A DNA stretch of 32,000 bases from Candidatus Scalindua sp. (GTDB lineage: Bacteria > Planctomycetota > Brocadiia > Brocadiales > Scalinduaceae): positions 750,001 through 782,000 of the forward strand of contig JALDRA010000001.1 in NCBI GenBank assembly GCA_031316235.1. Reading direction: 5' to 3'. The notes under the pieces are model-generated. The model was not told the DNA's origin. It searched no databases and saw only the letters and a program-made list of their open reading frames with translations. Shown in pieces: positions 6,175 to 26,249 of the stretch. Every line of letters begins with the position of its first letter. Position 1 is the first letter of the stretch. The translations under genes and the position numbers were made by a program.

Positions 6175-6188
6175 AAAGCCGATTTGTT

Positions 6189-9568: not shown

Positions 9569-9677
9569 TACGTTACACAGCGTAGCCCACTCAAGGCTGA
9601 AGTACCCTGAGTGAACTCTGGTCCATAAAGCAGATAATCTCCCCGCATCGGTGCGGGCAAACATTCTGGCTGAGAAC

Positions 9678-9743: not shown

Positions 9744-9794
9744 TTCTTCAGGTTTCTGGAATTGAATAGATGACGGCACTCTCAGCCGCTGAAT

Positions 9795-10400
9795 TTACAG
9801 CATTACCATGACACTCATCATGGCCGTTGACCATATAATATCTGCCGGCAGGTGAAGCTTGCAGGTGGTATCGAAGAGAAGATCGGCTCTGGGAGGAAAC
9901 TCTTCGTCACCCTTCCAGAGTATTATGGTAACAGGAATTCTTGGAAAAGGAAAGAGCCTTAACGACGCATCTCCGTATCCTGATTTTTCTCCGCCAAGTT
10001 CCTCTCCACGTATCAGGAACCCGTTGATATCATTGCCATATCTGTGTGCAATTTTATCAAGCGGAAGAATATGTGACCCTTTTAAGTAGATCTGCCCGGC
10101 TTCGAAGTCTTCAGGTTTTTCCAACTCTCCCGTGAGAAGAATATCCCTTGCATTGCTGAGATAGCAGAGGATTGAAATCCTGGAAAAATAACTCAGCTTA
10201 TTCAGCAGAATCTCACCGGCAGGTGAATCGCTCAGGATCTTTTTTTCAATAGGAAAAACAAGAATCTCCGAGCCGAAAGATTTAAGAACATACCGGCATT
10301 CCCCCTTATCATAAGTTACCTCCGCCCGTCTGGAGACATCTTCCGGTTTCAGATCTCCAAGAATTTTCCAGGCCCGTTCTTCGCCTGTTGATAAACTCAT
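9795..10400 (-). CDS. DUF3786-like protein (hypothetical)
   Basis: 201 aa. The C-terminal block FPFPRIPVTIILWKGDEEFPPRADLLFD...LPADIIW resembles my memory of DUF3786 proteins from anaerobes. Not verified by search. Confidence 0.45.
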   Translation of the reverse strand: MSLSTGEERAWKILGDLKPEDVSRRAEVTYDKGECRYVLKSFGSEILVFPIEKKILSDSPAGEILLNKLSYFSRISILCYLSNARDILLTGELEKPEDFEAGQIYLKGSHILPLDKIAHRYGNDINGFLIRGEELGGEKSGYGDASLRLFPFPRIPVTIILWKGDEEFPPRADLLFDTTCKLHLPADIIWSTAMMSVMVML

Positions 10401-10411
10401 TATTCTACTGT

Positions 10412-10437
10412 TATACTCACCTTATAATGGTTTTCGG
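10412..10437 (+). repeat. Family-1 repeat, 5'-terminal fragment
   Basis: TATACTCACCTTATAATGGTTTTCGG matches the 5' end of copies A and B (TATACTCATCTCATACTGGATTTCGG / ..CCCATAATGGTTTTCGG). The rest of the element is missing or diverged. It lies 12 nt from the DUF3786-like start codon. Confidence 0.6.
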
Positions 10438-10529
10438 TTTTCAGAAACTCGATTTCACATAAACTCATACCCTGAAATGCCAGGAATCATTGTACCATGG
10501 GTATATGAACTTTCATTTATCCAACAACC

Positions 10530-10787
10530 TCAGAGAACATAAATCCATAAAAACACCAGAAGAGTAAGGATTAAGACAATGTACAAAAAAGTTCTATTTT
10601 GAAAAAGAGAGGTCGATGGACGTGCATTTACTACCTCATCATCCTCATGAAGATCAAGACCATCATATATTGTTTCCTCAGACCAGCCGGTGTTTTCATC
10701 AGAACCACATTCGGGACATACCTTGGCCTTTGGCAGTAACTCTGCTCCACAATTCGGGCAGGCAAAATAATCATGCATGAATTTCAA
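10530..10787 (-). CDS. Zinc-ribbon protein with C-terminal transmembrane helix (hypothetical)
   Basis: CPNCG...CPECG zinc ribbon, an acidic linker, then the hydrophobic tail FLYIVLILTLLVFLWIYVL. Confidence 0.6.
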   Translation of the reverse strand: MKFMHDYFACPNCGAELLPKAKVCPECGSDENTGWSEETIYDGLDLHEDDEVVNARPSTSLFQNRTFLYIVLILTLLVFLWIYVL

Positions 10788-10952
10788 CTCCTTGAACTGT
10801 AAACCGCTTCATCTACCATCACAGACCTTGAATAATAATTTTCTTCATTAATTTCCTGCTACTGCACTGTCACGCAAACTCAACCATCACCAGAACTTTT
10901 TTCAGCCGCACACTGAGCCATGAGCCTCCTCTTTACCCTGGACTTAATCGGT

Positions 10953-13391
10953 TCAATTCATATCCTCTGGCGTTATCAGGCCACATAACACCTTATTCAG
11001 CACCTTGATTTCAAACGGTTTTGACACACCTCCACAAAAACCGTACCATTTAAAATTGGATAAAATCGGATCATTGGAGTATCCACTTGACACTATCGCC
11101 TTTACGTCAGGATCTATCTCAAGCAGTCTCTTAACCACTGTCTCTCCTCCCAGTCCGCCAGGTATGGTTAAATCCAGTATAACCGCATCAAAGGAGTCAT
11201 CCTCTTCTATAGCATTCCTATACAAACGAATTGCTTCTTCCCCTTCTCTGCATACCTCAACATCGTATCCGATGTTCCTCAGCAGCTGGCTTGTTGTATA
11301 TCTGATCTGCACCTCATCATCCATTATCAATATCCTTCCCTTGCCTGCAATTGGGCTTTCCTGCTTATCATCATTCACCGGGACCTCTTCTTCAGATATC
11401 GGTATATAGAAATGGAAGGTTGTTCCGGCCCCTATCTCCGATTCTACACTGATATATCCTCCATGGAACTTAATAATGGAAAAACAAACCGCAAGTCCCA
11501 GGCCGCTGCCCTTCTCCTTTGTCGTGAAATATGGATCAAATATCATGTTAGTATGCTCTTTTTGTATTCCGTATCCATAATCCACAACAGTTACCTTGAT
11601 GTAATCTCCGGGTTTCAGCGTGGGAACTTCCTTGCGGTCTATGGTGACATTTTCAGCAAAGACCTCTATCATACCGCCTTCCGGCATGGCCTGATCGGCA
11701 TTAATTATGAGATTGTTGATTACCTGGCTGATCTGTCCTGCATCAATATCGACAGGCCAAAGGTCATCAGGCAAAGAAATGTTGCACGTGACTTTTGAAC
11801 CTCTCAGGCTGAAACTGATTGTATCTTCTATCACTTCCCTGATAGAGGATGGCTGCTTTATCGGTAATCCACCTTTAGAAAAGGTAATGAGCTGAAATGT
11901 GAGCTTCTTTGCCATAAAAGCTATTTTTTCTACTTCTCTCAGATTTTGATATGGCGCGTCCTCTTTATGCACTCCCATCTTCGCAAGTGCTATATTCCCC
12001 AGTATACAGGCAAGATAGTTATTGAAATCGTGTGCAATACCACCGACAAGGATCCCCAGAGATTCAAGTTTTTGTATTCTGAGACGCTCTTTTTCTATTT
12101 TCTTCTGCTGGGTAAGGTCAATGGCAACTCCGATTGATCCTACGAGTTTTTTACTCGTATCATAGCGCGGGTGAATGGTATAAAAGACCGGAAACACTTC
12201 ACCACCTTTGCGAATCAGAATCGTCTCCCCGAAAAACCCCTTTTCCCCTCTTCTCAAAGCCTCCTGCATTGCAGTTATATCTTTAATGAATTCCTGAGGA
12301 TGGAGGGTGGCGAACCGTTCTCTTAATACTTCCTCTTTGGAGTATCCAAATATCTTTTCTGCACCCGGGCTGAAATTCAATATCTTCGTACCTTCTCCAC
12401 CAAGATCAGTCATGATAAGCGCAACGTTATCTACCGCATCGTACATCGCACGCAGAGACCCTTCCTGTTCATGTAAACCCTCTTCCGCCTTTTTGCGTTT
12501 GACCATTCCTGCCAACGTGTTCGCTATTGATTCCAGGAACAACTCCTCCCGTTCAGGTCTTTTCCCCAATTCGTCAAGATAGAGCAATAGTACACCAATC
12601 ACCTGTTCATCCAGCCTGATAGGTACAATGTAGTGACCATGTGAAACAATTTCTTTGTAGAGGTTCTCGTCTCGATCATCAACAGAATATTTATACATGA
12701 TATTTCTAAACTGGGCGGCCCTGCCACAGAGACAATGCCCGAACGTAACGGAAGAACACATCTTAACATGTTTCTTATCCAGACTTCGGTTTACCTTCAC
12801 TACAAGTATTTCTGGCTCATCTTCCACAAGAAATATTCCACCCTTTGGCAGTGCAGACATCCAGGGTACGGAAAGAATCACATCCAGAGATTCTTCCAGC
12901 TGTTTCGTGAGATCAATCTCCTTTAGTGATATCTTGAGGAGTTTATTCAGTACCTCCTGGTTCTGGTACGTCTCCTTCAATTCCTGATCCACTTTTTTAC
13001 GTCTGTTGACCTGGTTAATGGTAGAGAGGAGATGATCGATGTTTAATGGTTGCGTCTCGGACGATATCGCAGTTTTCACTGCTTCAATACCGTTATCCGG
13101 GGTAACAAAAGACGACATCAAGATAAATTCGGTTGAAGGCGAAATATCTCTTAATTTCCTGCTCAGTTCATCACCGGCAATGTCCGGCAACTTAACAGCT
13201 ATAAGGACGATGTCATAACTTTTGTACTTTATCAGGGTGACCGCATCCTTGCCACCATAACAACACTCAACAGTACAGTCATTACCCTCCAGGAACTCCT
13301 TCAAGCCCTCAGAGAGTACTTCATTATCATTAATAATAAGTATGTGAGTTTCTGTTTCCATCACAGGAGTCGTTTGAAACGAAGCGTTCAT
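10953..13391 (-). CDS. Hybrid sensor histidine kinase (pseudo-receiver, GAF, PAS, HisKA, HATPase_c, receiver)
   Basis: H-box GGIAHDFNNYLACILG. ATPase N/G boxes INNLIINADQAM, DYGYGI, GSGLGLAV. C-terminal receiver ILIMDDE...AVILDLTIPGG...SSGYS...KPF. GAF-like CLCGRAA region. N-terminal receiver-like fold with Ala in place of the phospho-Asp. Confidence 0.9.
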   Translation of the reverse strand: MNASFQTTPVMETETHILIINDNEVLSEGLKEFLEGNDCTVECCYGGKDAVTLIKYKSYDIVLIAVKLPDIAGDELSRKLRDISPSTEFILMSSFVTPDNGIEAVKTAISSETQPLNIDHLLSTINQVNRRKKVDQELKETYQNQEVLNKLLKISLKEIDLTKQLEESLDVILSVPWMSALPKGGIFLVEDEPEILVVKVNRSLDKKHVKMCSSVTFGHCLCGRAAQFRNIMYKYSVDDRDENLYKEIVSHGHYIVPIRLDEQVIGVLLLYLDELGKRPEREELFLESIANTLAGMVKRKKAEEGLHEQEGSLRAMYDAVDNVALIMTDLGGEGTKILNFSPGAEKIFGYSKEEVLRERFATLHPQEFIKDITAMQEALRRGEKGFFGETILIRKGGEVFPVFYTIHPRYDTSKKLVGSIGVAIDLTQQKKIEKERLRIQKLESLGILVGGIAHDFNNYLACILGNIALAKMGVHKEDAPYQNLREVEKIAFMAKKLTFQLITFSKGGLPIKQPSSIREVIEDTISFSLRGSKVTCNISLPDDLWPVDIDAGQISQVINNLIINADQAMPEGGMIEVFAENVTIDRKEVPTLKPGDYIKVTVVDYGYGIQKEHTNMIFDPYFTTKEKGSGLGLAVCFSIIKFHGGYISVESEIGAGTTFHFYIPISEEEVPVNDDKQESPIAGKGRILIMDDEVQIRYTTSQLLRNIGYDVEVCREGEEAIRLYRNAIEEDDSFDAVILDLTIPGGLGGETVVKRLLEIDPDVKAIVSSGYSNDPILSNFKWYGFCGGVSKPFEIKVLNKVLCGLITPEDMN

Positions 13392-13535
13392 GTCCCAACA
13401 TGAACGTAAAGGCCGATTATATGCATGCTGTCGACAGTTTGAAAGGGTTGATATCTTAGCTTTTCCCGCACCGCAAGCGGTATCTTTTCATTCACCACTC
13501 TGGAAAAGAGCTGGTTTCTCTACAGAGATTAAGAT

Positions 13536-13675
13536 TGTATTAAAACCGATCTGGTTTCAGATTTTTCTAAAAACCAAAGCCTGGTTGCCGGTATCCCCGG
13601 ACAGAAAACGCCGAGGACTTTTCTCGCTCCGTTTTTTCCCGGATTGTATCCGAAAACCATTACAACAGGTAAACC
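13536..13675 (-). repeat. Family-1 structured intergenic repeat, copy D (long form, subfamily b)
   Basis: The reverse complement reads ..TAATGGTTTTCGGATACAATCCGGGAAAAAACGGAGCGAGAAAAGTCCTCGGCGTTTTCTGTCCGGGGATACCGGCAACCAGGCTTTGGTTTTTAGAAAAATCTGAAACCAGATCGGTTTTAATACA. Both termini are diverged. Confidence 0.85.
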
Positions 13676-14017
13676 GAATCACACAAAAATAGATACAGAA
13701 ATTCAGGTAACAGTGAGACTCGGAGAACAAGACTTGCACTAAGATGCCCAATAATCACAATGTGCAATTTTTCCCCGCTGAAATTCGTCGTATTTTACTG
13801 TTGTTACTTCTAATTTTCCATATAATTATGGCAATACTCTTCGTGAGCCCGAGTGTCTTGTTCACTGTACAAGCAATTGATATCTTTCATTTCATGTAAG
13901 GTACTTCTTTTTTTTGTTTTGAAAAAATCCGGAATCTATGTTAAAAAGCACTAATAATTTTTACCTTCTGTCAACGTGAAAGAGGATCTGATCACGTTCT
14001 AAAAAAAAGCGCGCCGT

Positions 14018-14130
14018 TATACTAAAACCGATTTGGTTTTCGGTTTTACCGGAAACCAAATCTTGGTTGCGGTTATACTCGCTCAATTTTATCTCGGATT
14101 TTATCCGAAATCCAGTATGAGATGAGTATA
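14018..14130 (-). repeat. Family-1 structured intergenic repeat, copy E (short form)
   Basis: The reverse complement reads TATACTCATCTCATACTGGATTTCGGATAAAATCCGAGATAAAATTGAGCGAGTATAACCGCAACCAAGATTTGGTTTCCGGTAAAACCGAAAACCAAATCGGTTTTAGTATA. It ends 8 nt before ATG 14139. Confidence 0.95.
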
Positions 14131-14138
14131 CATTATTG

Positions 14139-15221
14139 ATGATGAGAAGAAACAGAGACAAAAAGGTGTATAAAAAAGGATTTAATCTTTTTGAAGCATA
14201 CCCGATGACCTTTTCAGAAAAAGTGGAATCCGTTGGGTATGATGGACCTGCAGAGGCTTTTACCATTCCATCACCTGGTTCAAAAGTCGAGCATATTGTC
14301 ATAAACCTCTGCCCTACTGAACCATGGGCACTTCCAAACTCAATAGCCATAGAGAATAATGCCCAGGAATTCTTTTCACAACTGGATACCGTACGAAAAC
14401 AACTCTTTGATGAATCATGCTGCCATGTCGTCATAAGTGCTCACGAAAGGGACCTGATGAGAGAAGTACAGGGGTTCAAGGGGTATGGTGACTGGCTGCA
14501 CACATACCTGCTGGATCCCATATACCCCCATGATGATCCAGTCCTTATATTGAATGAACTCCTGGGGTTAGACCTTGCCTTTGGTCAGGATAGCGTTGAA
14601 ATAGGTGTTCTTTTTTTAGATGCCCAGACCGTTACCGGTATATTTGAGCATCATATTCAAGGGAACAGATACAGTACCCGTCTCATACCCATATCCGGAA
14701 CCGGGTTAGTGAAAAACAAAATTCTCAAGGTTACGCCCGGTACTCCTCTTCGTGTACTGCTGGAGGGGAACATCAAACAAAATATCACCTACCGGGCATT
14801 TATTGACGGTCCGTTAAAGGGGTCTGAAGTCACCGATTTTAGTCAGAAGTTAAACTGGTCGACAAACAATATCGTTGTTCTTGAGGAAAAAGATTACAAG
14901 ACACCATTTCCTTATGTAAATTTAGACAAGCTGCTTTTTACGACAAGCCTGATGGGTGAATTGAGACACTGCGTATACTGTAATCATTGTGACGATATAT
15001 GCCCTGTCGGTTTAGAACCAGTCCTGTTCTGGCAATGTCACGAACGGGGAGAGAAGCAGAAGGCGCACCTTTATCGATTAGACAAATGTATCGAATGTGG
15101 ACTCTGCAGCTTTATCTGCCCTTCAAAGCTGGAGCTCCTTCAGGCTATCAAGGATTGTAAGTCAATTACCGCTGCAGATCAGGGCCCGGGAACAGATCAG
15201 AGTAAAGGGGCGGATGGATAA
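14139..15221 (+). CDS. RnfC/NqrA-like subunit with two 4Fe-4S motifs and no NADH/FMN loop
   Basis: CVYCNHCDDICP and CIECGLCSFICP (CxxCxxCxxxCP, twice). IVINLCPTEPW aligns to the NGAECEP segment of RnfC/NuoF-type domains. No GxGGAGFP loop and no long N-terminal RnfC_N region. It is the first gene of an nqr/rnf-like operon. Start may be ATG 14139 or 14142 (TTG 14136 in the track). Confidence 0.7.
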   Translation: MMRRNRDKKVYKKGFNLFEAYPMTFSEKVESVGYDGPAEAFTIPSPGSKVEHIVINLCPTEPWALPNSIAIENNAQEFFSQLDTVRKQLFDESCCHVVISAHERDLMREVQGFKGYGDWLHTYLLDPIYPHDDPVLILNELLGLDLAFGQDSVEIGVLFLDAQTVTGIFEHHIQGNRYSTRLIPISGTGLVKNKILKVTPGTPLRVLLEGNIKQNITYRAFIDGPLKGSEVTDFSQKLNWSTNNIVVLEEKDYKTPFPYVNLDKLLFTTSLMGELRHCVYCNHCDDICPVGLEPVLFWQCHERGEKQKAHLYRLDKCIECGLCSFICPSKLELLQAIKDCKSITAADQGPGTDQSKGADG

Positions 15222-15239
15222 CTTTCCACTTTCGTGGGA

Positions 15240-16361
15240 ATGGCAGAGAATTACATGAAAATAAATCGGATTTCAAAAAATAAAGATCCTTTTGTCAATA
15301 AAACTCTCAACAGGATTGAATCATTCATACATACACGACCCAGGGTCAATTTTCTTTTCGGGTCGCTTTTCGATGCCTTTGACGGACTTATAAGAAGTGC
15401 AAAAGACACTTCCAAGTCTCCTCCCTTCATTCGAAATCAGATGGATGTAAAACAGTATATGGGTGGTGTCATTGTGGCATTAATTTTTGGTTGGGTACTC
15501 CCCGCCATTTATTTCTATGGATTTTTCTGCGTTGTCCCCAAGATTATTGTATCTTTTGTTGTCGGTGTTTTTATTGTAGAGGTACTATGGGTCATCCTTG
15601 CCAGAGAAACGAAGATCAATGAAGGAGGATTTGTAACGTGCCTCTTTATCCCTGCATTCTTACCTCCCCAGGCACCTCTCTGGCTTGTCGGTGTGGGAGC
15701 TGCTGTCAGCATACTCCTCAGAAATATCCTTGGAGGGGTAGGAAACAATCTTGTGAACCCGGCCCTGTTGGGGCGTCTGATCTTGACTATCTGTTTTCCC
15801 TCTGTAATTGTCTTCGGCTGGCAGGAACCCCTTACGACTCTCCCAACCCTGCAATCCCTGCAATATGGAGTTGATGCGGTCACCCACGCAACTCCCCTGA
15901 TGCTCTACAAGGAAACAGGAGAGATAACATCGTACATTTCTCTCTTACTCGGAACCGGTACCGGTTCCCTGGGAGAAACGTGCCGGATAGCCATTCTCAT
16001 AAGCGGAATATGGTTATGCATAAAGCGGATTGCAAACTGGAGAATTCCCGTTGCTTTTTTAGGGAGCGTATTTTTCTTCGCTCTCCTGTTCTCTCTGCTG
16101 AGGGGAGAGACGGTGATACCGCCAATGCTGCAGCTCATGAGCGGAGGTCTTATCTTTGCTGCATTCTTTATGGCAACAGATCCGGTTACGACAACATACA
16201 ATCAGACGAGTAAGTGGATATTTAGTATCGGTTGCGGTTTTTTTACCGTGGTAATCAGAAATTTTACTCCTGTCCCTGAAGGCGTCATGTATGCCATCCT
16301 GCTGATGAATCTGATAGGGATCCCGATCCAATCTATCGTCTTACGGATAAAGTACCGATAA
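15240..16361 (+). CDS. NqrB/RnfD-like membrane subunit
   Basis: GVDAVTHATPL (flavinylation-type Dxx[ST]xA[ST] motif) and FFMATDPVTT near the C-terminus, polytopic. The start is ambiguous (GTG 15234, ATG 15240 or ATG 15255). Confidence 0.85.
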   Translation: MAENYMKINRISKNKDPFVNKTLNRIESFIHTRPRVNFLFGSLFDAFDGLIRSAKDTSKSPPFIRNQMDVKQYMGGVIVALIFGWVLPAIYFYGFFCVVPKIIVSFVVGVFIVEVLWVILARETKINEGGFVTCLFIPAFLPPQAPLWLVGVGAAVSILLRNILGGVGNNLVNPALLGRLILTICFPSVIVFGWQEPLTTLPTLQSLQYGVDAVTHATPLMLYKETGEITSYISLLLGTGTGSLGETCRIAILISGIWLCIKRIANWRIPVAFLGSVFFFALLFSLLRGETVIPPMLQLMSGGLIFAAFFMATDPVTTTYNQTSKWIFSIGCGFFTVVIRNFTPVPEGVMYAILLMNLIGIPIQSIVLRIKYR

Positions 16362-16441
16362 TTGCCGATCCATCAAGACTTGAAACGAAAATCAATGAAT
16401 TAAATACCTGTACCCTTTGAATAACGAAAGCACGTAAAAAA

Positions 16442-17152
16442 ATGAATGAATTGAGAAACATCATAACAAGGGGTTTCACGATCTTCCTCATTACGACAAT
16501 ACCGTGTACCATACTGCTCACCATCTACTTTGTTACTTCTCCGAGAATAGCAGAATATCATGAGATAAAATTGAAAAAATCTGTCCTTGATATTTTTAAA
16601 ATTCCCTATAAAGTTAATGAGCGGCAACTCTTCCTCTTTACATTGAGCAGTCCTGATAAAGAAGATATCAGAAAGGTTTTTGAAGACAACATAACCGTTG
16701 AAAACCTGCCAGAAACCGTAATATCAGATCGAACAGCGGGAGATCTTCAAAAAGAGAAAAAAGAGAAGAACCTCTTCAGGTATTATAAGGAGGGGAAATT
16801 AGAGGGTACAGGTTTTGTAGTAACAAAATTCGGCTATGGATTTAATAAGGCGGCCGACATTTCACTCTTTCTCTGTGTAGCCCCGGACCAGGAGACTATA
16901 AAGGGTATCGAGGTACTGGAACACGCGGAGACACCAGGCCTTGGAGGCAGAATGACTGATGATGAATTTAAGAGACAATTTATAGGGAAAAAGGTGAAAC
17001 CGAAACTCTCCTTTGTCAGCGACAGAGAATCAGCGGGTGACAACGAAGTACATGCTATTACGGGAGCTACTTACTCAAGTAAAGGGTTGGAAGCGATAAT
17101 TAATGAAGCAATGGAAACATTCTGGCAGGAAATAGAGGCGAAGAGCAAATGA
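16442..17152 (+). CDS. NqrC/RnfG-like FMN-binding subunit
   Basis: N-terminal anchor helix and VHAITGATYSSKG (the [ST]GAT flavin-attachment motif of the FMN_bind domain). His occupies the position usually held by Asp three residues before the T. Confidence 0.8.
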   Translation: MNELRNIITRGFTIFLITTIPCTILLTIYFVTSPRIAEYHEIKLKKSVLDIFKIPYKVNERQLFLFTLSSPDKEDIRKVFEDNITVENLPETVISDRTAGDLQKEKKEKNLFRYYKEGKLEGTGFVVTKFGYGFNKAADISLFLCVAPDQETIKGIEVLEHAETPGLGGRMTDDEFKRQFIGKKVKPKLSFVSDRESAGDNEVHAITGATYSSKGLEAIINEAMETFWQEIEAKSK

Positions 17153-18573
17153 ATGTGATTGCAAGATATATAAGACAAGCAGCAAAGTTCTTTTTACGGG
17201 ACAATTATATCATAACGTCCGCAGCAGGGCTCGGTTTTTGTTCAGCACTGGCAGTTACCAACAAGATGGAAAATTCCCTTACCATGAACGTTGGGATTGT
17301 TTTTGTTACCTGTGGAAGTTACTGTCTTGTGTATCCGTTCAGGAAATTAATCCTGGCATCGGGTACACATCACAGGATTACGCTCCTCATGATAATCATA
17401 TCCGTATTTGTTGCGATATTTAATCTGATAACACAGGCACTGATACCCAGGATTGCCTTTAGTATTCAGGCTTATATCGACCTTATTACCACGAACTGCA
17501 TCGTCCTTGCCGTAATTTCTGAAGGCCTGACCTATGAATTCTGGGATGCGCAGAAAAAGATCCTGAAGGCATGCCTGGGATACTCTATTGCCCTTGTCTT
17601 TTTAGCCCTTATGAGGGAACCTCTGGGATTTGGAACGATTCTTAATTTCCGGGTGCTCCCCGAGAGTTTTCCGGTAGTGATATTAATGATAACCCCTGTG
17701 GGTGGTTTTTTCGCCCTGGCGTTATGGAGACTCATGCTCAGGCCATTATTTATAAAAACAGGTGTTGTATTGCAGGAAAGGCCTCAGGAAGAAGCCCCTG
17801 AAACAGCTGCACAGGCAGCACCTCCTGCTTCCCTTCCCCCAAAATCAAAATTACCAGTGATGTCGAAAAAGTTCATCATCACTCTGGGAGTGGGAGCCGT
17901 TCTTATCGCAAGCCTACTCCTCAACCTTAAGGCTTTTCCATCGTTTCAGAGCCAGATGAGAGTCTTATTTCCCCTGTTTCTGAGCGCCCTGTTTTTTGAT
18001 GGTATCGTATTGAGTAAGCTTCTGGGAATCTGTCCTCTCTTAAATAAATCAAGACAGATTGATACCGCATGGAAAATGGGTCTGGCAGTCGTCATCGTCG
18101 TCACCTTATCCACAAGCCTTAACTGGATAGTTTATAACAAGGTATTGCTTAACGTAAGTGATTACGTTGCAACAATCTCTCCCGTTTCGATACGGCTTGA
18201 AAAGATATTCTACCTTACGGTCTTCATTGTTACCATTGCTACATTTGTACAGATACTTGGAGTACTGCTCAGACGTTTTGCAATGGACATCTATCAGCAA
18301 ATGGGTCAGTTTCTTGAACTCATCACCGTAAACTGCATCGTCCTTGCAAGCTCCACCTTTACCATCCCTTCAGGTCTCCCGTTCTGGTCTACGACTATTA
18401 CGGCCTTTGGTTTTGGTCTCCATTGGCTCATGGTATGTGTCTGGCTTGCGGTATTACGGCGTCAAAGGCTGTTTGTTGCATCAAATTCATGGGATGAAGA
18501 TTCTCTGGCAATACTCCTTTTGGGAATCATGGCAGCTATCTTTACCGGCATCGGGATGATAAACATCTTTTAA
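17149..18573 (+). CDS. Fused NqrD/RnfE-like + NqrE/RnfA-like membrane subunit (474 aa)
   Basis: The N-half has GLGFCSALAVT and IDLITTNCIVLA. The C-half has LLGICPLLNKS and LELITVNCIVLA. These are the two hallmark Cys-containing half-helices of each paralog. The halves are joined by a Pro/Ala-rich linker (QERPQEEAPETAAQAAPPASLPP) plus an extra hydrophobic helix FIITLGVGAVLIASLLLNL. The start overlaps the upstream stop (ATGA). Confidence 0.8.
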   Translation: MNVIARYIRQAAKFFLRDNYIITSAAGLGFCSALAVTNKMENSLTMNVGIVFVTCGSYCLVYPFRKLILASGTHHRITLLMIIISVFVAIFNLITQALIPRIAFSIQAYIDLITTNCIVLAVISEGLTYEFWDAQKKILKACLGYSIALVFLALMREPLGFGTILNFRVLPESFPVVILMITPVGGFFALALWRLMLRPLFIKTGVVLQERPQEEAPETAAQAAPPASLPPKSKLPVMSKKFIITLGVGAVLIASLLLNLKAFPSFQSQMRVLFPLFLSALFFDGIVLSKLLGICPLLNKSRQIDTAWKMGLAVVIVVTLSTSLNWIVYNKVLLNVSDYVATISPVSIRLEKIFYLTVFIVTIATFVQILGVLLRRFAMDIYQQMGQFLELITVNCIVLASSTFTIPSGLPFWSTTITAFGFGLHWLMVCVWLAVLRRQRLFVASNSWDEDSLAILLLGIMAAIFTGIGMINIF

Positions 18574-18636
18574 ACGTAATCGTATACATATGGCTTCAAT
18601 GAAAATACCGGAACAAAAAGTTACAGGGACCATACA

Positions 18637-20274
18637 ATGCTAACGCCTATTATATTTACCTTAATAGTTATTGTCGTACTTATGCTCGCATTGTCCGGCC
18701 TGAGCGAGATAATATACCAGCTGTTCGGCAAAGGGAAGAGACTACGGCTGGTTATCCACAGTGACAATGAATTCAAGAAGGAATTAGATTTTGAAGGCGG
18801 GGAGAAATTGCTCTCTATTCTTCAAACCAAGGGATTTAATATCTCCTCCGGATGCGGTGGAAATGCCACATGTGGGCAATGCAAGGTAAAGTTGCTTACA
18901 AACATGGGAACCTATGCTCCTACCGAGGCTCCTCTCTTTGATAGCATGGCAAGAAAAGAAACGAGGGAGTTTCTTGAAGAGGGCAAGGGTGACGGGTATA
19001 CGAGACTCTCCTGCCAGGTGAGGGTAGATAAAGATGTCGATATATATCTCCCGGGTTCAACGCTGCACGTAAAAAAATATACTGCACGAGTTTTAAAAAA
19101 GATACAACTCACCAGCGATAAATATGAAACACACCTACACCCATTTCAGAAATTTGACTTTATTCCAGGTCAATATATACAGATACGGCTCCCCGATGAT
19201 TATGTAGAGGAGCATTACAAGGAATTTGGTGAAAAGATACAGTGTTATTGCAAAGAAATTGACAAGAGATTTATACCCTATACCCCTGGACTTGATATAT
19301 ATCGTGCCTATTCATTGGCTACGACAAAAACAGAACCATTGAAATTGATTACGAGAATCGCGCCCATCAACCCCCGTGTTCCGATTGAAAAGGGAGGTGT
19401 ACCGTGTATTGGACCTCGATGTATAAAAGATTATATTCAAGATGAATCAATCTGGAATTTATGGGTTGGAGACAGAATACGGTTTACAGGTCCCTATGGG
19501 AATTTCCACCTTGTGAAGGAGAAACACCAGGCGGTCTTCGTCGCAGGTGGTGCCGGTTTAGCCCCCATCCTTGCACTGATGGAGCAGTGGTTCAATGAAG
19601 GACGTCATGAGAGTATATTTTTTTTCCTCGGTGAAAGGAGATTTCAGGATATACCTTTACGGTATATATCAAGGTGGTTAAAACAGGAGAAAGAATTTTC
19701 CAATTTCAAATTTATACCCGTTTTGTCAGGTGCGTTTAAGGGAGATGATCCGGCAGAGATGGACAGTCTGGATAAAGAGTGCCTTGATCAGGCTTCAGAT
19801 GAACTGAAGGGAGATATTTTAGAAGAGGGGCTGATAGATGAAAGCGGTGATAAATGGTCAGGCAAAACAGGTTTTATCGGCCCTTTGCTCACCGAATATC
19901 TCTCTCCCGGCGCTGACACGGTCTTCTATCTGTGTGGTCCCGCTCCCATGACCGTAACCGTTATCGATTCTGCGGCAAATAACCTCGGTATAGAGAAAGA
20001 TCGTGTCCAGTTCGATGATTTTACGGGCACACTTACGCCCTCTCTTGACCTGATCTACCAAAACATCGAGTTGAAAAAGAAAATTGAGGCGCTTCATCTG
20101 CTCCATGCCGATGAGTATCTAAAAAAGATAAGCCTCATTCTGATCATAAAGCTGATACTCAGAGATAAAATCGACGATAGTTACACGTTTCTCGATAAAG
20201 TCAAAAACATTGTGGATAATGACGGGGGGAGTAAAGAGGCCGCCCTGGAATCGTTATTGAAGGAATATGATTAG
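18637..20274 (+). CDS. NqrF-like reductase subunit (TM anchor, 2Fe-2S ferredoxin, FAD/NAD(H)-binding) with insertions and a C-terminal extension
   Basis: N-terminal TM helix. SSGCGGNATCGQCKV...RLSCQV (Cx5Cx2C...C as in NqrF). RAYSLAT (RxYS FAD motif). VFVAGGAGLAP and YLCGPAPM (NAD-binding). At 545 aa it is much longer than the roughly 400-aa size I recall for NqrF. Confidence 0.8.
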   Translation: MLTPIIFTLIVIVVLMLALSGLSEIIYQLFGKGKRLRLVIHSDNEFKKELDFEGGEKLLSILQTKGFNISSGCGGNATCGQCKVKLLTNMGTYAPTEAPLFDSMARKETREFLEEGKGDGYTRLSCQVRVDKDVDIYLPGSTLHVKKYTARVLKKIQLTSDKYETHLHPFQKFDFIPGQYIQIRLPDDYVEEHYKEFGEKIQCYCKEIDKRFIPYTPGLDIYRAYSLATTKTEPLKLITRIAPINPRVPIEKGGVPCIGPRCIKDYIQDESIWNLWVGDRIRFTGPYGNFHLVKEKHQAVFVAGGAGLAPILALMEQWFNEGRHESIFFFLGERRFQDIPLRYISRWLKQEKEFSNFKFIPVLSGAFKGDDPAEMDSLDKECLDQASDELKGDILEEGLIDESGDKWSGKTGFIGPLLTEYLSPGADTVFYLCGPAPMTVTVIDSAANNLGIEKDRVQFDDFTGTLTPSLDLIYQNIELKKKIEALHLLHADEYLKKISLILIIKLILRDKIDDSYTFLDKVKNIVDNDGGSKEAALESLLKEYD

Positions 20275-21334: not shown

Positions 21335-24289
21335 TCACAATCCCTTCCGTTCACAGAGCCTTTCAAAAGCGATTTCGCGACAATCAGGAGCGACATCTAT
21401 AATGTGAGGTTCCAGATCGGTTTGGACAAGCCTTTCGGTCCCCTTGGTTAGCAATCCATTAAACTCGGGGAATTTTTCTACCAACAGTTTTCTGATTGAG
21501 GTAATAGTACTGAAATCCTTCAATCCACCAATCTTCGCCAGAAGGCTGGTGTTAGTCGAATCATCACCAACAGGAAGGTTCGTGTTTAAGAATGCAAGAT
21601 ATCCCTTGTCAGTAAGCACTGCTCCCTCGCTCCTTAACGGGTCGACCAACGGTATGTGTACGTCCGCCTCCACATCACACCTGTAGTTACTCATCGCAAT
21701 GACTTTAACGGGTGCAGTAAGTTTGGTTTCCAGACATACTCCTACAAGCAAAATGCAATCTACTTCAGGGTTATCCCAGGGCTTTGCACCAATCTTACTT
21801 AAAAAGGCCGCATTGGCACTATTTTTCAGTTTGGCATGCGGAAATTTGTTCGGTTCTGATTTTTTACCCGGCAGATAATAGAGAGTACCCTTTTTCTCAT
21901 CGCAGAGACTTTTTGCGGTAAAAAGAGTCTCAACGGTTAATCTGGGAGAAACAATAACAGCCAATTTCTTCGCATTGTCCAGGATACTTCGAGAACTGTC
22001 CAGCCGGTCTCTGAGTTCGTTATCACCAAGCTCAATGCCCTTATCCTGCAGCTGATTTGAAAATCTTCCCTCTCGGCAAATCAGTGCGCTGTTGACAGGA
22101 TCGTTGTCCACGCTTTCTATTTTTGTAATCAAGCCCTCTTTGGTATGCACCTTTATAGCGCACCCCCTCTGACAGGAAGTGCAACTGCTGATAACAGTTT
22201 CGGTAAGCCAGGGACCGTATTCCTTACCGGTATTTTCCGCCAAAGCGCCGGTTGGGCACAAATCTATGCACATTCCGCAGGCGTCACAGTCAGTATCCTG
22301 AAGCCGATCCTCAAAGTTCGGTGCAACCTTTGTGGAGAAACCCCTGTTCACAAAAGACAAGGCTGAAATATTTCTCACTTCACTACAGATCCTTACACAG
22401 CTGCCGCACGTAATGCATTTATCCGCTTCAATACAGATAAAGGGATGCCTGGTATCAACATGGTACTCTCTCCGGTCACCCTTAAATTTCACATCACCGA
22501 TGCCGTACTCGGTGGAGTAATCCCTGAGGTCACAATCAAAACGAGCCTTACAGCCGCACTCTATGCAGCGAGTGGCTTCAGCCATTGCTTGAGCTTCATT
22601 GATACCGACATTTATGGCGTTATACCCCCCCCCTGCCATCCTCACTTTAGCAGGATATGTAGCTTCCATGGCCCGCTTCTGATGAACATAACGGGGTGAA
22701 TAATCTGCCATATCAAGATCTTTCAATCTCCCTTTGGTAATCTGATACTCCTTTTTAATTTCAACTTTGGCACCGCTCAAGAGGAGATTGATCGCTTTCG
22801 CCGCCTGTTTTCCCTCGGATACTGCACGAATTACGGTATCAGGCCCCCATGCACAGTCCCCTGCCGTAAAAACACCCTCTACCGATGTCACCATAGATTT
22901 CTGGTCATATTTAAAGGTATTCCATCGGGTACAATCGGGTACAATCTTCTCATCTTCCACACAGGAGAGGTCTGGATCTTGTCCAATGGCGGCAATAATC
23001 AAATCAAATTCAAGATCTTCTCCGCTCCCCTCAATTGGCTCAGGCCTTCTCCTGCCGGAATCATCAGGATCCCCAAGTTTCATGGAAACCACCCGCAGAC
23101 CTTTAGCAATCCCGTTTTCCACAAGCACCTCCTCCGGCGCAGTCAGATACCTGAACTCCACACCCTCTTCCATGGTCTCATCCTGCTCATGCTGGAGTGC
23201 CGGCATCTCTTCCTGTGATCTTCGGTAAATCAGGGTAACATTTCTTGCACCGCATCGCATTGCGACCCTTGCACAGTCCATCGCTGTGTCGCCCCCTCCC
23301 AGAACAGCAACACTTCTCCCCATTTTTACCGGTTCCTCAAGCACAACCTTACGGAGAAAATCAATCCCTCCGATTACACCCACAGCCTCTTCATTTTTTA
23401 TCCCCATCTTTTTGGCTTTATGTGCACCGATAGCCAGAAGTACCGCTTCTGCACCATTGCTTTTGAGATCTTCAATAGTAAAATCCTTACCCAGTCTCTG
23501 ATTGTAATGCACTGTTACCCCAAGATCAATGATTGCACTGATTTCTTTATCCAGTTTATCCCATGGCAACCTGAATTTTGGTATACCGTATCGCGTCATC
23601 CCTCCCAGGGCAGGTAGAGCTTCATAGAGATCCACCGCATGCCCCTGCTGCCTCAGAAAATAGGCCGCAGAGAGTCCTGCCGGTCCACCACCCACAATTG
23701 CCACCTTTCTGCCGGTATCCGGTAGCGTCTCAGGGAGAAACGGACCATACTCCAATTCATATTCAGATGCAAACCTCTTCAGTGGGTTAATGGCTACCGG
23801 TTCGTCAACGAGACCTCTTCTGCATTGAGCTTCACACGGATGGGGACAAATTCTCCCGCAAACGACCGGAAGAGGATTTCTCTCTTTGATTAATCTGACT
23901 GCAGCAGGATAATTTCCGTTTGATATATGTGCTATGTATCCCTGAACATCAATGTTTGAAGGGCAGGTGTCCTCACAGGGTGCAATACAGTCACCGCTGT
24001 GGTCAGACAACAGAAGGTCAAGGGCCATTCTCCGGGTTTTCCTGATCGCTTCAGTATCGGTCATGATCGCCATACCCGGTGTTACCGCTGTACTGCAGGC
24101 GGGTATCATGTTCTTTGCTCCCTTTACCTCTACAACACATAAAAAACAGCTTGTATACGCTTTTAATCTATCGTCAAAACAGAAGGTCGGAATCTCAATC
24201 CCCTGACTTTTTGCCGCCTCTCTGATTGTTGCACCAGAGGGGACCTCTATCTCTTTACCATTTAATGTTATTATGACATTCTCACTCAT
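21335..24289 (-). CDS. Multidomain Fe-S flavoprotein: 2Fe-2S ferredoxin + GltD-like FAD/NAD(P)H module + NuoG-like Fe-S domains + short MopB-like tail
   Basis: N-terminus TFCFDDRLKAYTSCFLCVVEV...IPACST (2Fe-2S). DHSGDCIAPCEDTCP...VCGRICPHPCEAQC (GltD-type clusters). VAIVGGGPAGLSAAYFL and VAVLGGGDTAMDCAR (two dinucleotide folds). CITCGSCVRIC, CDACGMCIDLCPTGAL, CTSCQRGCAIKV (MopB-type 4Fe-4S). About 280 aa follow the last motif. Start chosen at MSENVII (cat at 24287-24289). Confidence 0.75.
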   Translation of the reverse strand: MSENVIITLNGKEIEVPSGATIREAAKSQGIEIPTFCFDDRLKAYTSCFLCVVEVKGAKNMIPACSTAVTPGMAIMTDTEAIRKTRRMALDLLLSDHSGDCIAPCEDTCPSNIDVQGYIAHISNGNYPAAVRLIKERNPLPVVCGRICPHPCEAQCRRGLVDEPVAINPLKRFASEYELEYGPFLPETLPDTGRKVAIVGGGPAGLSAAYFLRQQGHAVDLYEALPALGGMTRYGIPKFRLPWDKLDKEISAIIDLGVTVHYNQRLGKDFTIEDLKSNGAEAVLLAIGAHKAKKMGIKNEEAVGVIGGIDFLRKVVLEEPVKMGRSVAVLGGGDTAMDCARVAMRCGARNVTLIYRRSQEEMPALQHEQDETMEEGVEFRYLTAPEEVLVENGIAKGLRVVSMKLGDPDDSGRRRPEPIEGSGEDLEFDLIIAAIGQDPDLSCVEDEKIVPDCTRWNTFKYDQKSMVTSVEGVFTAGDCAWGPDTVIRAVSEGKQAAKAINLLLSGAKVEIKKEYQITKGRLKDLDMADYSPRYVHQKRAMEATYPAKVRMAGGGYNAINVGINEAQAMAEATRCIECGCKARFDCDLRDYSTEYGIGDVKFKGDRREYHVDTRHPFICIEADKCITCGSCVRICSEVRNISALSFVNRGFSTKVAPNFEDRLQDTDCDACGMCIDLCPTGALAENTGKEYGPWLTETVISSCTSCQRGCAIKVHTKEGLITKIESVDNDPVNSALICREGRFSNQLQDKGIELGDNELRDRLDSSRSILDNAKKLAVIVSPRLTVETLFTAKSLCDEKKGTLYYLPGKKSEPNKFPHAKLKNSANAAFLSKIGAKPWDNPEVDCILLVGVCLETKLTAPVKVIAMSNYRCDVEADVHIPLVDPLRSEGAVLTDKGYLAFLNTNLPVGDDSTNTSLLAKIGGLKDFSTITSIRKLLVEKFPEFNGLLTKGTERLVQTDLEPHIIDVAPDCREIAFERLCERKGL

Positions 24290-24470
24290 TATCAATACCT
24301 GGAGTTTTAATTATGTAAAGTAAAATTTCTATTTAGTAGTTGAACGGAATCTACCCGTCTCATGCGTTGCAGTAATAATTCCTTACTCTCCGCTTACTTT
24401 CCGGTTATTAAATCAGCACGCATTTTGTCACTGAGCAGTTTTTTTCCAGTCACGGGTTTCCGTTCACCTA

Positions 24471-26249
24471 TTATTTTACCTGAATAGCTTTGGAGTTACA
24501 GACCTCAAAACACATCCCGCAGTTTATACATTTTGCCTGAATAATAGTATAGGACCCTTTTACTTTCTTTTCTCCCGTAATTGCACCAACCGGGCATTGA
24601 ATCTGACACAAGGAACAGCCAATGCAGTCGGCAGGGATAATAGTGTGGGTTATCAGGCTTTTGCACACACCGGCAGGGCATCTCCTATCTTTAATATGTG
24701 CCTCATACTCGCTGCGGAAATATTTCAGCGTGGTTGCAACGGGATTGGGTGCAGTCTGCCCAAGTCCGCACAGGCTAGCCTTTGTTATCTGTTCAGTCAG
24801 CTCATCAAGCGCATCCAAGTCTGACATCTCAGCCTCTCCGTCACAAATCTTGGTCAAAAGCTCCCTCATCCTCAAGGTACCAATTCTGCAGAAAGTGCAT
24901 TTTCCACACGATTCCAGCTGGGTAAAACTGAGGAAATACTTGGCAAGGTCAACCATGCAGGTAGATCCATCCATCACGATCATGCCACCGGATCCCATAA
25001 TGGCGCCTGTAGCATTTATCGCAGCATACTCGATTGTCGTATCAAAAAGGCTTTCCGGGATACATCCCCCGGATGGTCCTCCAAGCTGTACAGCTTTAAA
25101 TGGCTTTCCCGATGATGGCCCGCCACCGATATCCTCCAGCACGTCTCGTATCTTTGTACCCATCGGGACTTCAACCAGACCTCCTTTTTTAATGGCCCCT
25201 GCCAGTGCAAACACCTTTGTACCTTTGGAATCTTCAGTCCCGTATGCAGCATAGGCGGCCCCGCCATTATTAATTATCCATGGCAGATTAGCCAGGGTTT
25301 CAACATTGTTTATTATGGTCGGCTTACCGAATAAACCTTTCACAGCAGGAAATGGAGGTTTAAATCTCGGCATTCCCCGATCTCCCTCAATTGAGGCAAT
25401 CAGGGCAGTCTCCTCTCCGCAGACAAAAGCACCTGCACCTTCCTTTATTTTTATGTCAAACGAGAAACTGCTTCCCTGAATATTTTCCCCTAGTACACCC
25501 AGTTCATGAGCGTCCTTTATCGCTTTTCCGAAGTTTTTCACAGCCAGTGGATATTCTGCCCGGATATACGCATATCCCCTGGCAGCTCCGATGGCATATG
25601 CAGCGATCATCATGCCTTCAATGATATTGTGAGGGTCTCCTTCTAAAAGCGAGCGGTCCATAAAGGCTCCCGGGTCGCCCTCATCACCATTACAGATAAG
25701 ATACTTGACATCTCCTTCAGATTTTCTGGCAAAATTCCACTTGACATGCGTGGGAAATCCTGCACCGCCCCGTCCTCTGATACTGGAAATTTTAATCTCC
25801 TCGATAACCTGATCAGGCGACATTTCAGCAACAATTTTTTTAATTGCTTTATAACCGTCCCTCTTCTGATAATCCGAAATTGATGTGGGATCCAGATATC
25901 CGACATTCCGGAGAGCTATCCTGGTTTGATGCCCCAGATACTGCCATTTATGAGAATCCTGTTTCTCGGGTGAGTAAATCAAATGTTCCTCCAGGGGTTC
26001 ACCCTCCCCTTTATGAAACTTTATGATTTGCGGAACTGTTTTCTTTGTGACTTGACCGTATATATATCTGTTGCCGTTGTTATCATGTATCTCGGTGATT
26101 ACCTCCTGATGGCACATACCGACACAACCAACAGTTCTGATGTTTATTTCCGGAGCGTATTTCCGGAAGGCTTCTATCACCTCTTTTGAGCCTGCAGCGA
26201 TTCCACAGGTCCCTTCTCCAACGATTACGTTAAGATTATTTGCATCCAT
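24471..26249 (-). CDS. NuoF/HydB-like NAD(H)-binding FMN Fe-S subunit with extra N- and C-terminal cluster domains
   Basis: GRGGAGFPTHVKW (FMN/NADH loop), ICNGDEGDPGAFMDR, ESCGKCTFCRIG (N3 cluster). C-terminal CIGCSLCQIQCP and CINCGMCFEVC. An N-terminal thioredoxin-like segment carries TCGIAAG...GCVGMCHQE. Confidence 0.88.
   Translation of the reverse strand: MDANNLNVIVGEGTCGIAAGSKEVIEAFRKYAPEINIRTVGCVGMCHQEVITEIHDNNGNRYIYGQVTKKTVPQIIKFHKGEGEPLEEHLIYSPEKQDSHKWQYLGHQTRIALRNVGYLDPTSISDYQKRDGYKAIKKIVAEMSPDQVIEEIKISSIRGRGGAGFPTHVKWNFARKSEGDVKYLICNGDEGDPGAFMDRSLLEGDPHNIIEGMMIAAYAIGAARGYAYIRAEYPLAVKNFGKAIKDAHELGVLGENIQGSSFSFDIKIKEGAGAFVCGEETALIASIEGDRGMPRFKPPFPAVKGLFGKPTIINNVETLANLPWIINNGGAAYAAYGTEDSKGTKVFALAGAIKKGGLVEVPMGTKIRDVLEDIGGGPSSGKPFKAVQLGGPSGGCIPESLFDTTIEYAAINATGAIMGSGGMIVMDGSTCMVDLAKYFLSFTQLESCGKCTFCRIGTLRMRELLTKICDGEAEMSDLDALDELTEQITKASLCGLGQTAPNPVATTLKYFRSEYEAHIKDRRCPAGVCKSLITHTIIPADCIGCSLCQIQCPVGAITGEKKVKGSYTIIQAKCINCGMCFEVCNSKAIQVK

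Follow-up and report, generated by a model that had tools for sequence, protein, structure and literature searches.

We analyzed a 32,000-nucleotide (nt) stretch of the genome of Candidatus Scalindua sp. (assembly GCA_031316235.1, contig JALDRA010000001.1, positions 750,001 to 782,000), hereafter called the window, which carries a five-gene operon for a predicted membrane redox complex with features of both the Rnf and the Nqr families. By open reading frame (ORF) calling, five tightly packed plus-strand ORFs fill window positions 14136-20274, with successive gaps of 12, 80, -4, and 63 nt (Table 1). Pfam and NCBIfam domains bore out the gene order read in the initial annotation, i.e., subunits A, B, C, a fused D+E, and F. 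Its other structural claims were likewise confirmed: the last subunit is of NqrF type, with a transmembrane anchor and Cx5Cx2C...C, RAYS, and GGAGLAP motifs; the first subunit has two CxxCxxCxxxCP motifs, at residues 279-290 and 318-329; and no rnfB, apbE, or nqrM lies in or beside the operon, as neither the neighboring ORFs nor the rest of the 32-kb window matched RnfB, ApbE, or NqrM. Ferredoxin-type motifs were found in only three ORFs of the window, those of subunit A, a 592-amino-acid (aa) NuoF-like protein, and a 986-aa NuoG-like fusion.

Subunit A gave Fer4 dicluster matches, and the rnfC model TIGR01945 aligned with it only from model position 149, at 102.6 bits (cutoff, 246). The nqrA models scored 40-65 bits (TIGR01936, 49.8 bits; cutoff, 321), and a Pfam scan detected no NQRA domain (NQRA_N or NQRA_2nd) in the protein. 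Its closest sequence matches in the PDB are the RnfC chains 9eri_C and 7zc6_C, the alignment starting at RnfC residue ~140-150 and running to the end, and the RnfC proteins of A. woodii, C. tetanomorphum, and A. vinelandii are its best solved relatives by sequence; Vibrio cholerae NqrA matches only along the last 75 residues. In an AlphaFold2 (AF2) model built from a 60-sequence alignment, core residues 20-255 are confident, with a predicted local distance difference test score (pLDDT) mostly above 80, and Foldseek with this model returned RnfC first (E = 1.8e-17 to 1.4e-15), NqrA next (9e-12), and then NuoF-type flavoproteins. A cross-phylum alignment revealed that A lacks the ~100-residue N-terminal barrel-sandwich domain of its relatives, being ~100 residues shorter than RnfC or NqrA, and that anammox (anaerobic ammonium-oxidizing) A proteins retain an N-terminal "F-x-G-G-x-x-F" arm, the arm motif of the window protein being KKGFNL.

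The motifs by which RnfC binds flavin mononucleotide (FMN) and nicotinamide adenine dinucleotide (NAD), i.e., GGAxFPT, NxAECEPY, and KYPQGxEKQ, are degenerate in window A, where they read GYDGPAE, NLCPTEPW, and YPHDDP. The iron-sulfur (Fe-S) motifs have fared differently: among 60 anammox and Desulfobacterales homologs, C279, C282, C285, and P290 do not vary and conservation of C289 is 90% or higher, and all eight cluster cysteines are invariant in a 29-sequence, multi-phylum alignment with a mean identity of 36%, which argues for selection acting on the clusters. Judged by these motifs, the NuoF-like FMN/NAD domain of A is degenerate, and a C-terminal 2x[4Fe-4S] ferredoxin domain is predicted. 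Altogether, the results indicate that A derives from RnfC and keeps both cluster sites but has very probably given up the binding of flavin and NAD.

The remaining subunits resemble both families. Subunit B, with about nine hydrophobic helices, matches NQR2_RnfD_RnfE (E = 3e-79), scores 210 bits with rnfD (cutoff, 207) and 197-202 with nqrB in NCBIfam, and gives 127-136 bits with RnfD and 114-116 bits with NqrB in sequence comparisons; its rnfD match alone, among those of the operon proteins, reaches a curated cutoff. Subunit C matches FMN_bind (1.7e-15), with 70 bits for rnfG versus 60 for nqrC, and has one N-terminal transmembrane helix. The fused protein contains two Rnf-Nqr domains (1e-59), an RnfE/NqrD-type N-terminal half and an RnfA/NqrE-type C-terminal half, and its linker holds an extra hydrophobic helix (Table 1). 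NqrD and NqrE have an inverted membrane arrangement, and joining two six-helix halves of opposite orientation would take an odd number of helices, for which the linker helix would be needed. Subunit F has Fer2 and NAD_binding_1 domains, an N-terminal transmembrane helix by hydrophobicity, a 2Fe-2S motif (C73-x5-C79-x2-C82...C126), a flavin adenine dinucleotide (FAD) motif (R223-A-Y225-S226), and an NAD motif (G304-G-A-G-L-A-P310); against the nqrF model TIGR01941 it reaches 169 bits (cutoff, 295). Anammox F and canonical NqrF have in common an insertion of ~30 residues within the FAD domain. Anammox F proteins also have their own insertion of ~35 aa (about residues 366-402) and a C-terminal extension (Table 1), which is present in Scalindua and Brocadia and found neither in canonical NqrF nor in the other relatives described below; the F protein of Kuenenia is also 545 aa long.

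The survey of relatives proposed in the initial annotation returned the same five genes in Kuenenia, Brocadia, and Jettenia. Homologs of the fused D+E protein are 76-99% identical within Candidatus Scalindua and 66% identical in Candidatus Brocadia, and A homologs of 334-384 aa, all with Fer4 matches, occur in Scalindua, Brocadia, Jettenia, Kuenenia, and "Wunengus." The five Brocadia genes encode A, B, C, DE, and F proteins of 344, 367, 244, 474, and 542 aa, and those of Kuenenia stuttgartiensis (CP049055.1) encode proteins of 348, 367, 227, 472, and 545 aa. A more distant sister operon, L163 (Logan SRR22388139 contig, positions 5347-11269), encodes proteins of 365, 378, 215, 475, and 542 aa that are 25-47% identical to those of the window and has the same architecture of short A, fused D-E, and long F. 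The five-gene set is thus present in all anammox genera sampled, i.e., Kuenenia, Brocadia, Jettenia, and Scalindua. No rnfB was found beside the operon in Kuenenia, Brocadia, or L163, and because flanking genes vary among the anammox genera, no accessory gene is syntenic with it. In one Brocadia locus, a pair of small genes, one of which encodes a TumE domain, lies between the fused D-E gene and nqrF (11439-12174), an insert that looks to be of toxin-antitoxin type.

We compared cofactor ligands and ion-translocation residues using a Vibrio-like operon as the numbering ruler, which reproduces NqrB T236, D397, E144, and D346; NqrD C29, C112, and D133; and NqrE C26, C120, and E95. The flavinylation threonines are kept in B (THAT, equivalent to T236 of V. 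cholerae NqrB) and in C (a TGAT motif), and the fused subunit keeps the four cysteine ligands of the intramembrane [2Fe-2S] cluster (C31, C117, C295, and C396), which are invariant in 121 of 121 anammox fusion proteins. The set of ligand motifs is therefore complete for a path from F (FAD and 2Fe-2S) via the D-E cluster and C-FMN to B-FMN. By contrast, three acidic residues on which Na+ translocation by Vibrio Nqr critically depends (PMC12901251), D397 of NqrB, D133 of NqrD, and E95 of NqrE, are replaced in the window by Gln, Lys137, and Gly371, respectively. The position of D133 is K or R and that of E95 is G or S in all 121 anammox fusions, and the D397 equivalent is Gln in the three anammox B sequences compared (3/3), whereas the three positions are acidic in the Rnf and Nqr sequences compared and in those of the class defined below. 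L163 still carries the D397 and E95 carboxylates, which restricts the loss to the main anammox group. Since all three Na+-critical acids are replaced, the ion coupling of the anammox complex is probably altered relative to that of Vibrio Nqr.

A HMMER search with A against 1.84 billion representative sequences gave 3597 matches. The best scorers after the anammox proteins (110-144 bits) were proteins of 450-510 aa with both Fe-S motifs and without the FMN glycine loop, while canonical RnfC (430-440 aa, with GGAxFP and ECEPY) scored less, at ~78-94 bits. We defined a class operationally by an A subunit that has both [4Fe-4S] motifs intact but not the FMN glycine loop, an nqrF that closes the operon, the absence of rnfB, and a core outside canonical Rnf; by its sequence features, the window operon belongs to it. 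One genome per GTDB species was then scanned with the family alignment, and the 80 loci obtained were annotated by ORF calling and phmmer. An A subunit with Fe-S motifs and no FMN loop was followed by an nqrF-type gene at the operon end in 44 of the 80 loci; in 10 more the contig ended ahead of the nqrF position, and 6 had another arrangement and no nqrF. The other 20 loci encoded canonical RnfC with the FMN loop and had no nqrF, and the combination of an FMN loop in A with nqrF occurred in none (0/80), so that the FMN motif in A and nqrF are strictly anticorrelated across these loci. The FMN loop was first scored with the regular expression GG[AGS].[FY]P, and near-RnfC members such as P0256 (GKGGFP) were rechecked by an alignment of all three FMN/NAD motifs, in which these are degenerate in A of the other anammox genera, as in the window, and missing throughout the class. 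RnfB was found where loci with canonical RnfC were inspected (L039).

The 44 class loci are distributed over Omnitrophota, Pirellulales, Phycisphaerae/Sedimentisphaerales, Spirochaetota, Bipolaricaulota, a Thermotogae metagenome-assembled genome (MAG), Eisenbacteria, Desulfobacteraceae, and Brocadiia. Like the window operon, they combine an A with two Fe-S motifs and no FMN motif, a B-C-D-E core, a terminal nqrF, and no rnfB; the operons of Omnitrophota, Planctomycetota, Spirochaetota, Bipolaricaulota, and Desulfobacterota differ from it in having six genes with separate D and E, a full-length A (450-510 aa), an F of about 360-430 aa with Fer2, FAD_binding_6, and NAD_binding_1 domains, and the three acidic residues intact, and the shorter F proteins of the class lack the FAD-domain insertion. 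NCBIfam scores across the class form a continuum from Rnf-like to Nqr-like, and at the Nqr-like extreme stands a Desulfobacteraceae locus with a fully canonical NqrF (587 bits), whose A has ~120 Desulfobacterales homologs in which NQRA_N and NQRA_2nd accompany Fer4 dicluster domains; NCBI or JGI gives many of them the name "Na(+)-translocating NADH-quinone reductase subunit A." Class proteins in general carry mixed database names (Nqr, Rnf, or "4Fe-4S dicluster domain-containing protein"). The contrary outcome envisaged in the initial annotation, that Fe-S-bearing NqrA homologs are the norm, held in part: Fe-S-bearing NqrA-like subunits beside nqrF are common in anaerobic lineages (the 44 loci; Desulfobacterales), but the NqrA proteins of 17 Vibrio-like canonical operons contain no CxxCxxCxxxCP motif.

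Some relatives depart from this plan. In five Spirochaetota loci (L007, L009, L012, L014, and L015), F is only 149 aa long, with a transmembrane helix and a 2Fe-2S domain and no FAD/NAD domain. This short F is followed by NuoE-like and NuoF-like genes in L014 and, by Pfam, by a Fer2_4/Fer4 gene in L007; same-position ORFs match in size and Fe-S motif count in L007, L012, and L015, and no NuoE/NuoF-like ORF was seen downstream of the 149-aa F of L009. The short F with NuoE/NuoF-type genes looks like a fourth type of input module for the shared core. In two Omnitrophota loci, a polyprenyl synthetase gene lies directly 3' of nqrF (L072, 15369-16361; L054, 14603-15598), a neighbor suggestive of a connection with isoprenoid quinone synthesis. 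On metagenome contig ERZ827522 (L150), an RnfC-type C terminus with two Fe-S motifs (positions 46-375) lies directly 5' of a Vibrio-like nqrB-F whose NqrF is 80% identical to that of V. cholerae; this is either a real Fe-S NqrA in an operon of gammaproteobacterial type or a chimeric assembly. Four further loci, L025, L026, L027, and L031 (Helcococcus, a Bacillota MAG), all have an enlarged G subunit of 506-666 aa; the cluster-ligand positions were read in L031 alone, an Rnf-like operon with V, S, R, and T at the four RnfE/RnfA positions and with the NqrE E95 equivalent lost.

Phylogenetic trees were built on B, on D+E and F, and on concatenated B+C+D+E (933 columns, 66 operons), with canonical Nqr sampled among relatives of Vibrio NqrF and with long branches present. 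In the concatenated tree, canonical Rnf was monophyletic (100%), as was canonical Nqr together with the Desulfobacteraceae Fe-S form (100%), and the canonical Nqr clade was nested in the class, beside members of Planctomycete type (100%). All nqrF-bearing operons were separate from Rnf, with 91-100% support. The anammox clade was monophyletic (100%), on a branch of length 0.65, outside both canonical clades; nesting of all five subunits within a canonical Nqr or Rnf clade, raised in the initial annotation as the counter-case, was not seen; of 100 bootstraps, 3 put the anammox sequences together with Rnf and none put them with canonical Nqr. When the D and E paralogs were each rooted by the other, Rnf was basal in both halves, with weak support. 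On these trees, the class forms a grade that lies between Rnf and canonical Nqr and has the latter inside it; the anammox form, as judged from its long branches, its own fusion, the domain deletion, and the insertions, is a fast-evolving, derived representative of the class and not the ancestral intermediate itself.

A published scenario derives Nqr from Rnf by loss of rnfB and gain of NqrF, followed by a cofactor-less NqrA (PMC4014512). The class combines rnfB lost, NqrF gained, and the FMN/NAD site lost with Fe-S cysteines kept, as that scenario would have it, and the trees would fit an order of events in which NqrF was gained together with the loss of the flavin/NAD site of A, the clusters being lost late, on the line to Vibrio-type Nqr. 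The proposal in the initial annotation that the cluster is an intermediate or recombined form therefore stands in one respect, in that the class combination fits the intermediate of this scenario; it does not stand for a recombined oddity, given the occurrence in all anammox genera and in 44 of 80 loci, nor for the ancestral intermediate itself.

Measured against the Na+-NQR of V. cholerae (NqrABCDEF; PDB 7xk3 and 8a1w), the window operon shares the NqrF input (transmembrane anchor, 2Fe-2S, FAD, and NADH site), the FAD-domain insertion, flavinylated B and C (here from motifs), the D/E Cys4 site, the gene order, and the absence of RnfB. It differs in the two [4Fe-4S] motifs of A, of which Vibrio NqrA has none, the missing barrel-sandwich domain, the fused D-E, an F that is ~135 aa longer, the replaced acidic residues, the lack of a nearby apbE or nqrM, and sub-cutoff scores. 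By sequence, then, it agrees with canonical Nqr in the NqrF motifs, the flavinylation threonines, and the D/E cysteines and departs from it in cofactor content of A, Na+ carboxylates, equivalog cutoffs, and clade membership. With Rnf (A. woodii 9eri, C. tetanomorphum 7zc6, and A. vinelandii 8ahx) it shares RnfC as the best sequence and fold match of A, both [4Fe-4S] motifs, and D/G/E/A core homologs that score as well or better against Rnf than against Nqr; RnfB, the FMN/NAD motifs and N-terminal domain of RnfC, and membership of the Rnf clade are lacking, and an NqrF-type subunit is present, features that would place the operon outside Rnf. The NQR/RNF-like partial systems of Actinobacteria and the Candidate Phyla Radiation (CPR) also join NqrB/RnfD to an NAD-binding domain of NqrF type (Meheust et al. 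2021, PMC8238504) but are single fusion proteins with a one-way path and no A, D, or E, whereas the window operon keeps the full two-way core.

The genes themselves have been recognized and given names in anammox genomes before. The "Na+-NQR" of Kuenenia stuttgartiensis and "Ca. Jettenia ecosi," listed with fused D and E (PMC6828613), consists of five orthologous genes with the same subunit lengths and no structural difference from those of the window, and ion-translocating complexes have reportedly been detected in Kuenenia by complexome profiling (PMC6828613, citing de Almeida 2016). Annotation of Rnf versus Nqr in anammox bacteria has been confused, with the statement that "nqrA was missing" (PMC9325076), and the complex has been credited with a part in the sodium motive force (PMC7275097). 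The Fe-S motifs of A go unmentioned in these three papers (PMC6828613, PMC9325076, and PMC7275097), as do the domain deletion in A and the lost acidic residues in the open-access anammox genome and complexome papers examined. Reviews assign FMN and two [4Fe-4S] clusters to RnfC and no cofactor to NqrA, and intermediates, fusions, and anammox bacteria are absent from them (PMC12174285, PMC9588780). No description of an Fe-S-bearing NqrA was found in the open-access papers searched, including those that name both "NqrA" and "4Fe-4S." What appears to be undescribed so far is the class, the retention of the clusters, the deletion of a domain in A, and the loss of the Na+ residues.

The surroundings of the operon are also listed in Table 1. 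Base composition is uniform through the operon region, with no compositional break, and hisF lies convergent with the operon, 7 nt past the stop codon of the F gene. A consensus scan for promoters and terminators gave nothing exceeding shuffled expectation, and no promoter was found. The upstream intergenic region contains two copies of a dispersed repeat with the core AAACCGATTTGGTTTTCGGTTTT and an internal 15-nt palindrome, each within a duplicated segment of ~100 nt; the palindromic repeats (13535-13662 and 14017-14117) were considered as an operon-specific regulator site and rejected, as the repeat is dispersed, with 6 copies in the 32-kb window against 0.01 expected. It looks like a repetitive extragenic palindromic (REP) element or a miniature inverted-repeat transposable element (MITE). 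About 1 kb downstream of the operon, and convergent with it, lies a three-gene NuoE/NuoF/GltD-fusion cluster that looks like an NADH-linked, possibly bifurcating, module; it was rejected as a partner of the operon, with which it is not syntenic in Kuenenia or Brocadia. Upstream, on the opposite strand, are genes for a DUF3786 protein and a hybrid sensor kinase.

Table 1. Features of the operon and its surroundings in the 32-kb window
Feature	Position (window)	Strand	Details
Subunit A, RnfC/NqrA-like	14136..15221	+	361 aa; alternative ATG starts possible at 14139 and 14142
First CxxCxxCxxxCP motif of subunit A	14970..15005	+	residues 279-290: C279-x2-C282-x2-C285-x3-C289-P290
Second CxxCxxCxxxCP motif of subunit A	15087..15122	+	residues 318-329: C318-x2-C321-x2-C324-x3-C328-P329
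Subunit B, NqrB/RnfD type	15234..16361	+	375 aa
Subunit C, NqrC/RnfG type	16442..17152	+	236 aa
Fused D+E subunit (NqrD+NqrE)	17149..18573	+	474 aa
Extra hydrophobic helix in D-E linker	17872..17928	+	residues 242-260; Kyte-Doolittle 2.38
Subunit F, NqrF type	18637..20274	+	545 aa
C-terminal extension of subunit F, anammox-specific	20029..20271	+	~80 aa, residues ~465-545, after conserved FDDF terminus
Upstream intergenic region	13392..14135		744 nt; two copies of dispersed palindrome-containing repeat
AAACCGATTTGGTTTTCGGTTTT repeat copies	499-521(-), 5735-5757(-), 6271-6293(-), 13543-13565(+), 14025-14047(+), 31190-31212(+)		
DUF3786 protein	9795-10400	-	
Hybrid sensor kinase	10953-13391	-	812 aa; two receiver domains plus GAF, PAS, HATPase
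NuoE-like 2Fe-2S thioredoxin-like protein	within 21335-26886	-	170 aa
NuoF-like protein	within 21335-26886	-	592 aa; Complex1_51K, NADH_4Fe-4S, Fer4 domains
Fusion protein	within 21335-26886	-	986 aa; Fer2_4, GltD-like Fer4_20 + Pyr_redox_2, Fer4_Nqo3, Molybdop_Fe4S4

Taken together, these data favor, with a probability of about 0.7, the reading that the products of the five genes make up an Nqr-type complex in its anammox-lineage form, belonging to a class with an NqrF input and an RnfC-derived Fe-S subunit A as output. NADH would be oxidized at the FAD of F, whose [2Fe-2S] would pass electrons to the Cys4-ligated cluster inside the fused D-E and from there to the covalent FMN of C on the outer face; they would return via the FMN of B, and presumably the riboflavin of B, to the cytoplasmic side, and leave through the two putative [4Fe-4S] clusters of A to a terminal acceptor. 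Anammox bacteria must make NADH, and for this reason the whole path may run in reverse in the cell, from quinol to NADH. Because A appears to bind neither FMN nor NAD, its clusters would have to pass electrons to something else, likely menaquinone at the A/B interface. Menaquinone is favored on three grounds, i.e., canonical Nqr would descend from this class, photoaffinity labeling locates the head group of the quinone within an NqrA pocket (PMC12901251), and polyprenyl synthetase genes adjoin two Omnitrophota operons. Cluster occupancy, acceptor, direction of flow, and ion coupling are all matters that we infer from the sequences.

Several points weigh against this reading. With the equivalents of D397 in NqrB, D133 in NqrD, and E95 in NqrE lost, the mechanism may differ from that of Vibrio Nqr, and all five proteins score under the NCBIfam Nqr equivalog cutoffs. 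The case for cluster occupancy in A is made by motifs only, the ferredoxin domain itself being poorly modeled by AF2, with a pLDDT of 35-55 (below 50 for residues 259-338), and the sequence holds nothing that identifies the acceptor. The trees were made by neighbor joining with a simple distance correction and 100 bootstraps, and the position of the anammox clade in the class, at the end of its 0.65 branch, is basal with weak support (30-44%).

A bolder form of this reading would hold that the operons constitute a third major Rnf/Nqr class, distinct in function and found in many anaerobic phyla, with NqrF as input, a flavin-less [4Fe-4S] output, and the clusters on the electron path; that canonical cofactor-less Nqr evolved from within it; and that the anammox form, with its three Na+-critical carboxylates lost and D fused to E, is a non-Na+, NAD(H)-linked conduit, either proton coupled or uncoupled. 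We advance this whole chain of claims only tentatively and think it rather more apt to fail in some part than to hold.

It is unlikely that the operon encodes an ordinary Na+-translocating NADH:quinone oxidoreductase in which the Fe-S motifs of A are vestigial or structural and the riboflavin of B reduces menaquinone directly. This is the name in use in the literature (PMC6828613, PMC7275097), and it accords with an NqrF-type subunit, the absence of rnfB, the canonical FAD-domain insertion of F, and the nesting of canonical Nqr in the same class; yet the eight cysteines and the CP prolines are invariant over deep divergence, which would be unexpected for vestiges, and A is nearer to RnfC than to NqrA by sequence and fold. 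The replacement of all three Na+-critical acids in anammox bacteria (PMC12901251) and the sub-cutoff Nqr scores of all subunits also speak against it.

We consider quite improbable a re-wired oxidoreductase between NAD(P)H and ferredoxin (or another acceptor), working without RnfB, in which the distal [4Fe-4S] of A would meet a soluble ferredoxin, Fe-S protein, or flavoprotein and F would take NAD(P)H. Fe-S motifs with no flavin or NAD site beside them do need a partner, related operons occur in phyla of mostly fermentative anaerobes, and the spirochaete relatives, in which a NuoE/NuoF-type module replaces the FAD/NAD domain of F, point to exchangeable input modules. By analogy with Rnf and Nqr, however, the F/RnfB side is the low-potential input, and were ferredoxin to enter at A and NAD to leave at F, ion influx would be coupled to a downhill reaction. 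Moreover, a separate canonical Rnf has been reported in anammox genomes (PMC6828613); the NuoE/NuoF/GltD-fusion cluster that lies 1 kb downstream in the window, which might have supplied a partner, is not beside the operon in Kuenenia or Brocadia; and the Omnitrophota polyprenyl synthetase genes hint at quinone. Finally, a recent Scalindua mosaic from recombination between rnf and nqr operons, suggested superficially by the mixture of Rnf-like and Nqr-like best matches, has hardly any standing left, being already contradicted by the sequence comparisons: Kuenenia, Brocadia, Jettenia, and the divergent sister L163 have the same architecture and subunit lengths, every subunit lies either equally far from both canonical clades or outside them, and composition is unbroken across the operon.

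On the favored reading, that of an Nqr-type complex with an Fe-S output subunit, the operon and its relatives represent living intermediates of the route from Rnf to Nqr, forms that are absent from the reviews (PMC4014512, PMC12174285), and the order of events that they suggest, with NqrF gain and FMN/NAD loss together and Fe-S loss last, makes the scenario testable on real proteins. A predicted [4Fe-4S] pair where Vibrio NqrA has none, by the photolabeled quinone pocket, bears on the role of NqrA and on the site of quinone reduction. Anammox bacteria are globally important organisms of the nitrogen cycle and have been modeled with this complex as an Na+ pump, an assumption that the loss of the carboxylates calls into question; if true, a non-Na+ anammox conduit would alter the sodium-based model of anammox energy conservation.

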